Source: Escherichia coli (GTDB taxonomy: Bacteria > Pseudomonadota > Gammaproteobacteria > Enterobacterales > Enterobacteriaceae). From it: a stretch of DNA of 64,000 bases. The translations under genes and the position numbers were made by a program. Of this stretch, positions 19,005 to 19,684 are shown in pieces (position 1 is the first letter of the stretch; every line of letters starts with the position of its first letter). The notes beneath the pieces are model-generated. The model saw only the letters and a program-made list of their open reading frames with translations, ran no database searches and was not told the origin of the DNA. The stretch lies in the NCBI RefSeq assembly GCF_003334815.1, contig NZ_QOWO01000019.1; one strand, given 5' to 3'.

Positions 19005-19059
19005 TGAGTTCCAAATTATGCCCAATGAGGTAGATTCATTGGGCATAATTGCTCATCAG
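19001..19059. repeat. Nested palindrome / stem-loop immediately after sixA stop
   Basis: Outer arms CTGATGAG / CTCATCAG and inner arms TTATGCCCAATGA / TCATTGGGCATAA around a 7-nt loop; no clear T-run. Confidence 0.5.
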
Positions 19060-19684
19060 GCAGCGGATATCTGTCAACCTCACTACTATCGAAGACTCTC
19101 CCCATCTATAAATAAAACACCTTTAACTTTCATTCGGAAAGTATTCTTCTGCGCGTATCTTGATTTTGCCCAAAGTTACATGTTGAAATGAATAATGTCT
19201 GTTTGACACTCATTATCATTTATTAATACAGATAATGGAGAAAATAGAGTTGAATAATCAGGCAGGACGTAATTGAAACTTGATTAAATTCTGGCTATAG
19301 TGTTTATATATTATATCGACAAAAGCGGGTTAATGCCAATCGCATTATATGTTCATTGTTTGTTTTTTAAGCTATTGGCATTCATTGTTGATATGCTTCC
19401 TGTTTTTTCTAAATATATATTTCGTGTTTTTTTAGAAGATCCTTAAGATAATCTTTCCCCTATCAATATATTAATTAAATCTACATTTACTCATTAGTAA
19501 AATTAAATTGAATCAGGGGAGTGAAAACATCACTATTCGACCCCACACCAACGAATACATTTTTTACGACCTGTTTTTTTGGATCGCATGCCGTATTCAA
19601 TGGCTGGGTATAAACATTGGCTATTGACTGAATCAATGTATTGCAATGTTTATATTTTAATTATTTATAGTTTAAGGACAAATA

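Follow-up and report, generated by a model that had tools for sequence, protein, structure and literature searches.

What is the long AT-rich DNA in front of the yfc fimbrial operon of Escherichia coli for? In the 64,000-nucleotide stretch of E. coli chromosome examined here (contig NZ_QOWO01000019.1; hereafter the window), 680 bp separate sixA from yfcV, the first gene of the yfc chaperone-usher operon, and the RefSeq annotation places no feature between them. We put a probability of roughly 85% on the reading that this spacer controls the cryptic yfc operon in cis and is silenced mainly by H-NS. As stated, this is nothing new: the spacer is an already catalogued H-NS-bound promoter island ahead of a cryptic fimbrial operon. 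Promoter islands, as described by Shavkunov, Panyukov and Ozoline, are AT-rich, dense in promoter-like sites, bound by both RNA polymerase and H-NS, and barely transcribed, and we find no essential difference between them and the yfc spacer. Our analysis adds that sequence conservation is limited to the proximal 215 bp and one promoter node further upstream. The sole unexplained element is a conserved promoter that fires away from the operon.

Published data place both H-NS and RNA polymerase on this DNA. A 489-bp promoter island at yfcV/sixA (island 2453647_489) is one of 78 in Table 1 of Panyukov and Ozoline (2013; PMC3661553). The key to that list marks it 'K', bound by H-NS according to the chromatin immunoprecipitation (ChIP) sequencing of Kahramanoglou in MG1655 and the ChIP-chip of Oshima in W3110. 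Other K-12 islands in the same list precede the cryptic chaperone-usher operons sfmA, yadN, ybgD, elfA, yehD, yraH and fimB/E/A (PMC3661553). Systematic evolution of ligands by exponential enrichment (SELEX) on chips gave a sigma-70 (RpoD) holoenzyme peak and an H-NS site within the spacer (Shimada, 2014; Fig. 3b, Table 2; PMC3946193), and the same study named TTGAAA-17-TATAGT the yfcV "constitutive promoter". A SELEX peak for the RpoS holoenzyme also lies within the spacer (PMC5493296). Where Wurpel (2013; PMC3559732) cites Korea (2010), yfc is described as core-associated and as functional but cryptic, and such fimbriae as H-NS-repressed. Expression of yfcV is reported to rise by a log2 value of 5.2 in CFT073 upon TosR overproduction, and to be raised by BolA overproduction and by bicyclomycin, an inhibitor of Rho. 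A CsiR ChIP peak with 1.9-fold induction was judged too weak for interpretation.

A promoter island comprises at least 300 bp dense in predicted starts, with RNA polymerase binding and in vivo H-NS occupancy. All three are found here, the latter two through the literature. Our own scan returned many promoter-like sites on both strands of the spacer, although the generic count of -35/-10 hexamer pairs was not above that in dinucleotide-preserving shuffles; the high density of such sites is what composition predicts. The catalogued island presumably covers about 19218-19706 of the window, where we take the U00096.2 conversion offset to be ~1978. The first-pass annotation had read the spacer as an H-NS-silenced fimbrial control region, and the ChIP and SELEX results for this exact spacer support it. 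It had named the lack of any detectable transcription start, together with a lack of H-NS occupancy, as what would refute the idea; because occupancy is published, that refutation fails.

The spacer stands out in its surroundings by length and composition. It is the longest of 54 annotated intergenic spacers in the window, which have a median of 87.5 bp and a runner-up of 371 bp, and its GC content is 31.9% against 50.1% for the window as a whole. The lowest-GC 680-bp stretch of the 64 kb falls within it; 0.07% of stretches of that size are equally low, and all of them overlap the spacer. Tracts of at least four A/T bases occur at 41 per kb, compared with 19 per kb across the window, with a roughly twofold frequency of TpA steps. 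Against dinucleotide-preserving shuffles of the spacer, however, neither tract number, nor 10-11-bp AA/TT phasing, nor matches to the H-NS high-affinity motif TCGATAAATT exceeded expectation. What sets the spacer apart is therefore its length and composition, with no sign of a curvature code. The boundaries given in the first-pass annotation were exact (last base of sixA 19004, first base of yfcV 19685), and it was right that the region is far longer than its counterparts and strongly AT-rich. Its remark on many A/T tracts holds for absolute density and fails as a claim of excess over shuffled sequence.

Comparison among genomes indicates which properties of the spacer are maintained. A fimbrial subunit gene follows sixA in 5426 of 5426 complete E. 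coli genomes. The spacer and yfcV together fall into at least 11 deeply divergent allele classes: K-12/B1, O157/EDL933, EC6868, E69, B2/LF82 and further ones from E. whittamii and metagenomes. Between classes, identity is 51-66% in the spacer, which is near random for AT-rich DNA, and 65-84% in yfcV. GC content stays within 25-34% in every class, and length within 558-687 bp in all but one, a metagenomic allele of 514 bp. In Citrobacter (sp. FP75), Enterobacter (sp. RIT418) and Klebsiella (K. spallanzanii), operons homologous to yfc (38-41% subunit identity) lie at unrelated loci and have non-coding leaders of ~700 bp and 22-34% GC. Since length and GC are held across the classes and these distant homologues, the long AT-rich leader must be counted as a conserved component of the operon, not a peculiarity of this locus. 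Judged from these sequences, the architecture is ancient and moves together with the operon. The EDL933 spacer is 99% identical to that of the cryptic-clade Escherichia sp. E1V33 and only ~63% identical to the K-12 allele; the allele classes are older than species boundaries or have been exchanged across them.

Table 1. Features in and around the sixA-yfcV spacer, in window coordinates
Feature	Position	Strand	Description
sixA	18519-19004	+	From annotation
sixA-yfcV spacer	19005-19684		680 bp, non-coding, 31.9% GC
sixA terminator hairpin	19014-19050	+	Follows sixA stop; perfect 15-nt arms, 7-nt loop
Distal AT-rich filler	19051-19469		~420 bp; unalignable between classes (~51-66% identity)
Pdist, TTGAAA-17-TATAGT	19273-19301	+	13.9 bits; predicted start ~19308, leader ~377 nt
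Conserved bidirectional promoter node	~19296-19339	both	Near-consensus, symmetric
Pdiv, TTGGCA-18-TATAAT	19339-19310	-	Predicted start ~19303, pointing at sixA
Conserved core	19470-19684	+	215 bp; sole part alignable in all allele classes, including Pseudocitrobacter
Pmid, TTGAAT-17-CACTAT	19508-19536	+	Predicted start ~19543-19546, leader ~140 nt
Inverted pair CACACCAAaGAATA / TATTCAATGG	19544-19557 / 19594-19603	+	Conserved
Inverted repeat TATAAACATTG / CAATGTTTATA	19609-19654	+	11 nt, perfect in K-12
Pprox candidate, TATATT	19651-19656	+	Predicted start ~19663
Translation initiation region GTTTAAGGACAAATAATG	19670-19687	+	Invariant; AAGGA 19674-19678, ATG 19685
yfcV	19685-20248	+	First gene of yfc chaperone-usher fimbrial operon; controlled by spacer

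Alignable sequence is confined to the core next to yfcV (Table 1). Its blocks are, in order, AGTAAAnTTAAATTG, CAnnAT, CACACCAAaGAATA, TATTCAATGG, TATAAA (19609-19614), GyTTATATT and an invariant TTTAAGGACAAATAATG. The TTG and CAnnAT elements of Pmid are kept at fixed spacing in the alleles and are followed by a G+C-rich stretch at 19537-19549; at this position a site of at least 5 bits is present in 7 of 11 classes, and one of at least 3 bits in 11 of 12. The aligned sites of the homologous operons are TTTACA-17-AATACT in Citrobacter and TTGATA-17-AATACT in Enterobacter, each followed by GCnGCCCGCC and an A/T-rich motif like that of E. coli, and in both genera the promoter-like element with its G+C-rich patch lies ~190-200 bp upstream of the subunit gene. 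On this comparison Pmid makes the best case for a core promoter, with transcription predicted to begin at ~19543-19546. Closer to the gene, every one of the 11 allele classes retains TATATT as a -10-like element (as TATAAT in class L045 and TATATC in class L076), with no conserved -35 element across those classes. Two inverted repeats lie downstream of Pmid. The CACACCAAaGAATA/TATTCAATGG pair may be either a pair of protein-binding sites or a 5'-proximal RNA stem; the TATAAACATTG/CAATGTTTATA repeat keeps its TATAAA and TTTATA cores, with covariation (A-U against G-C) at one pair. The motif CAAAGAATAT may resemble half of an RcsAB box, a reading that we set aside.

At the other end, the first ~46 bp of the spacer are taken up by the sixA terminator hairpin, so that to call all 680 bp a leader, as the first-pass annotation did, gets the length of the spacer right and overstates the leader. 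Six allele classes retain this G+C-containing hairpin, in which 7 of 13 pairs show compensatory changes; it has no clean T-run in K-12, where a terminator scan called none, and a clear one in the EDL933 and EC6868 alleles. Between hairpin and core lies the filler, in which sequence conservation is at background level while length and GC are conserved, as fits a platform that H-NS would presumably read by composition as it nucleates and spreads. The filler region is also a recurrent target of the insertion sequences (IS) IS1 and IS5, with junctions at 19043, 19101-19111, 19229-19238, 19318 and 19447 in different natural isolates; XJW9B277, F1267 and FDAARGOS_1249 are examples of strains with IS1 or IS5 in the spacer, and two of these events accompany deletions that remove yfcV wholly or partly. 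H-NS silencing at bgl and other xenogeneic AT-rich promoters is relieved by IS insertion or by anti-silencers. The yfc spacer is like bgl in its AT-rich upstream silencer over a competent promoter, its natural IS1/IS5 insertions and its rise on Rho inhibition. It differs in that two of its IS insertions delete yfcV.

The filler contains one conserved element. When the window was scored on both strands with a simple sigma-70 weight matrix, only two sites reached at least 13.5 bits, and both lie within the spacer, a point that the first-pass annotation had missed. The rightward Pdist, in its near-consensus form, is restricted to the K-12/B1 allele class and lies 13 bp upstream of the rightward element of the node. 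The leftward Pdiv is far more widely kept: 8 of 11 allele classes have their highest-scoring sigma-70-like spacer site (11.8-14.6 bits) on the minus strand, with its -10 element 370-383 bp upstream of the yfcV ATG. Its hexamers, TTGnnA and TATAAT, are preserved around a variable 16-18 bp, and the classes differ rather little in how far it lies from the sixA stop codon (272-310 bp). Shuffled spacers yield just 0.12-0.27 sites of at least 13 bits each. The Pdiv -10 element TATAAT (19315-19310) overlaps a rightward TATTAT (19309-19314), and this geometry is conserved in eight allele classes.

Such geometry suggests a symmetric bidirectional promoter with predicted starts 18 bp apart, at ~19303 leftward and 19321 rightward. 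Warman, Grainger and colleagues described promoters of this kind, with overlapping -10 elements and starts ~18 bp apart (PMC12825309). The spacer node matches them by sequence geometry alone, and the match predicts that polymerase binding in the two directions would be mutually exclusive. Two differences are apparent: the leftward arm at yfc faces the 3' end of sixA without a gene to serve, and K-12 has another strong rightward promoter that overlaps the node. Downstream of the leftward arm we found no sequence, open reading frame (ORF) or peptide conserved across allele classes, which leaves the purpose of this arm unexplained. In the K-12/B1 class only, a 12-nt inverted repeat, AATGCCAATCGC / GCTATTGGCATT (19332-19382; 92% complementary, 27 nt apart), overlaps the Pdiv -35 element.

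In the mechanism that we favor, H-NS would nucleate and spread on the AT-rich DNA, and the resulting filaments would occlude or trap RNA polymerase at the node and core promoters. Expression would then need anti-silencers or a loss of H-NS or Rho function, in keeping with TosR, BolA and Rho inhibition as the reported inducers. Messages begun at the distal node would carry a leader of ~365-377 nt that is exposed to Rho, and those begun at the core promoter a leader of ~140 nt; we regard the two as roughly equally likely to provide the main physiological start. Several points weigh against silencing by H-NS as the principal explanation. The case for H-NS repression of yfc in particular draws on a secondary citation together with occupancy data, and the effects of TosR, BolA and bicyclomycin may be indirect. 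Once composition is accounted for, neither A-tracts, nor their phasing, nor the H-NS motif is in excess, and we therefore cannot point to a particular nucleation site. The promoter scores come from a simple weight matrix and are limited accordingly. Finally, passive silencing leaves unexplained why a near-consensus promoter directed away from yfcV should be so strictly conserved.

The alternative that survives best places control after initiation. A constitutive distal leader would be cut short by Rho, or translation would be blocked at a Shine-Dalgarno hairpin, for instance by CsrA bound to the looped GGA, with H-NS in a secondary role. Bicyclomycin does raise yfcV, a near-consensus promoter does lie ~375 nt upstream, and the core contains conserved hairpin-forming repeats. 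The invariant AAGGA falls in a predicted loop, the GGA of the Shine-Dalgarno sequence sitting in the loop of a weak predicted hairpin. Across the alignment, 92% of cells are paired in the first helix, CACACCAAaGAATA/TATTCAATGG, and 93% over the core repeats and Shine-Dalgarno hairpin together, and one-sided stem changes tolerate G-U pairing. Yet most of the stem sequence does not vary, a single pair shows covariation, and the z-score of the K-12 fold is just -1.6; for these reasons we do not claim an RNA structure for the putative 5' leader. The repeats and hairpin could be RNA structures of the 140-nt leader, and could equally be protein-binding sites. Moreover, silenced genes are known to show overlapping effects of Rho and H-NS, so that the bicyclomycin result does not separate the two. 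We judge post-initiation control unlikely as the principal mechanism.

The leftward promoter invites a different and more doubtful proposal, namely that the node acts as a directional toggle. Leftward polymerase would transcribe ~250 nt of unconstrained DNA up to the sixA hairpin, and in doing so would decide whether the core promoter fires. It could do this because leftward engagement excludes rightward initiation, or by remodeling the H-NS filament through transcription and supercoiling. If true, such a toggle would be a pap-like divergent architecture that dispenses with PapI and PapB, and would represent selection on a promoter whose product is irrelevant.

Alternatively, the product itself may matter: a hidden gene in the spacer, encoding either a small regulatory protein or a ~250-nt leftward RNA that ends at the sixA hairpin, would set yfc expression in place of H-NS alone. 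This possibility draws on the near-consensus leftward promoter, with hexamers conserved around a variable spacer in 8 of 11 classes, and on its fairly constant distance to the sixA stop. The EDL933 hairpin adds to it, for an A-run on the left besides the T-run would make that hairpin a bidirectional terminator, able to stop transcription on both strands. However, all eleven small ORFs of the spacer are broken in alleles that are 88-95% identical, and none has an NCBIfam match; nor does the minus strand beyond the leftward promoter hold a conserved ORF. When the distal regions of different classes were compared as peptides in six frames, no frame-specific similarity emerged. Peptides matched solely at the shared hairpin, and did so in all frames, which reflects nucleotide similarity and not coding. 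An Rfam scan of both strands at a permissive threshold returned three chance-level matches (E at least 2.4), far below gathering scores. The body of the putative RNA lacks sequence conservation, which makes an RNA that acts in trans unlikely, and H-NS probably silences the leftward promoter as well. We consider a hidden gene improbable, and the small regulator gene that the first-pass annotation had allowed for is absent; its remark that the spacer holds no small ORF with a good ribosome-binding site stands in the sense that none is conserved.

It is very unlikely that the spacer is functionless AT-rich debris of horizontal transfer or mutation bias, with promoter-like sites as by-products of composition. 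Its distal half is indeed unalignable, and promoter-like sites, A-tracts and H-NS motifs are no commoner than in shuffled sequence. Length and GC are nevertheless narrowly held across at least 11 classes and distant homologues, the 215-bp core has been conserved while coding sequence diverged to 65-84% identity, and promoter hexamers persist around variable spacers, at scores (at least 13 bits) that are rare in shuffles.

Still less credible is an epigenetic switch of the pap type, in which Dam methylation of two GATC sites would compete with Lrp binding under PapI/PapB-like regulators. The spacer resembles papI-papB in being a long AT-rich region with H-NS repression and in having a divergent promoter several hundred bp ahead of the one that serves the major subunit. 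Two GATC sites are present in K-12, and the usher phylogeny of Nuccio and Baumler (2007) reportedly places Yfc in a related clade, with the Pap-like (pi) fimbriae. These sites, at 19438 and 19582, are 144 bp apart instead of ~102 bp, and neither is conserved across classes; the distal one is lost even in a 94%-identical B1 allele, and the proximal one is missing from the EC6868 and LF82 alleles. No papI- or papB-like ORF was found on either strand in any allele, and there is no evidence of phase variation. We therefore rejected this mechanism.

We rejected as the least plausible of all a fim-type phase switch, in which a site-specific recombinase would flip a promoter segment between inverted repeats: although the fimS element of type 1 fimbriae is likewise a fimbrial promoter in a long AT-rich spacer, and itself a listed promoter island, the only repeats that enclose strong promoters at yfc (19104-19120 / 19424-19440; 17 nt, 76% complementary, 303 bp apart) are weak and allele-specific, a query across the inverted junction matched in 0 of 3069 genomes, and no recombinase gene adjoins the operon, the genes around the spacer being fadJ, sixA and yfcVUSRQPO. 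The spacer is collinear over at least 80% of its length in 3072 genomes, the remainder being divergent alleles or IS events, and the K-12 stretch holds a single integrase gene, intS of a prophage, ~11 kb away. The first-pass annotation had seen no inverted repeats around a promoter and had left room for an invertible switch; our search, which found no conserved repeat pair around a promoter, agrees with the former and removes the latter.

The wider window provides context for these results. It is a K-12-like segment, the reverse complement of MG1655 NC_000913.3 2411331-2475330, so that subtracting a K-12 coordinate from 2475331 gives the window position. The spacer thus corresponds to K-12 2455647-2456326, and the predicted starts to 2456023 (19308), 2456010 (19321), 2455785-2455788 (19543-19546) and ~2455668 (19663) rightward and ~2456028 (19303) leftward. 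Between ~8947 and 63923 only nine single-base differences separate the window from MG1655, whereas positions 1-8946 do not match the MG1655 CPS-53 prophage region beside argW; the source is a K-12-like strain with other prophage content at that site. One of the differences, C here and G in MG1655 at 22066, is in the usher gene yfcU (20330-22975), which is an intact 881-codon ORF in this strain and a pseudogene with an internal stop in MG1655. It follows that this strain may assemble Yfc fimbriae where MG1655 cannot. Other stretches below 37% GC over 680 bp are 10921-12690 (yfdF and its flanks) and 1532-2766 (part of the prophage region); the catalogue of H-NS-bound promoter islands also includes the yfdF/mlaA spacer and the yfdI region (PMC3661553).

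Two observations concern the distribution of yfcV. Copies of the E. coli type occur on tiny contigs labelled Stappia sp. BW2 (428 bp) and a Collinsella metagenome-assembled genome, almost certainly through assembly or binning contamination. In addition, yfcV serves as a presence/absence marker for uropathogenic strains. Given the subunit gene in 5426 of 5426 genomes and the divergence of the alleles, this marker probably reports the B2-type allele and not the presence of the gene.

The yfc spacer illustrates the evolution of a silenced control region: ~420 bp keep their composition and length while their sequence is free to change, and a core and one node stay fixed even between alleles from lineages as far apart as phylogroups A, B2 and E and the cryptic Escherichia clades. 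The candidate starts and conserved motifs described here provide concrete targets for work on Yfc regulation.

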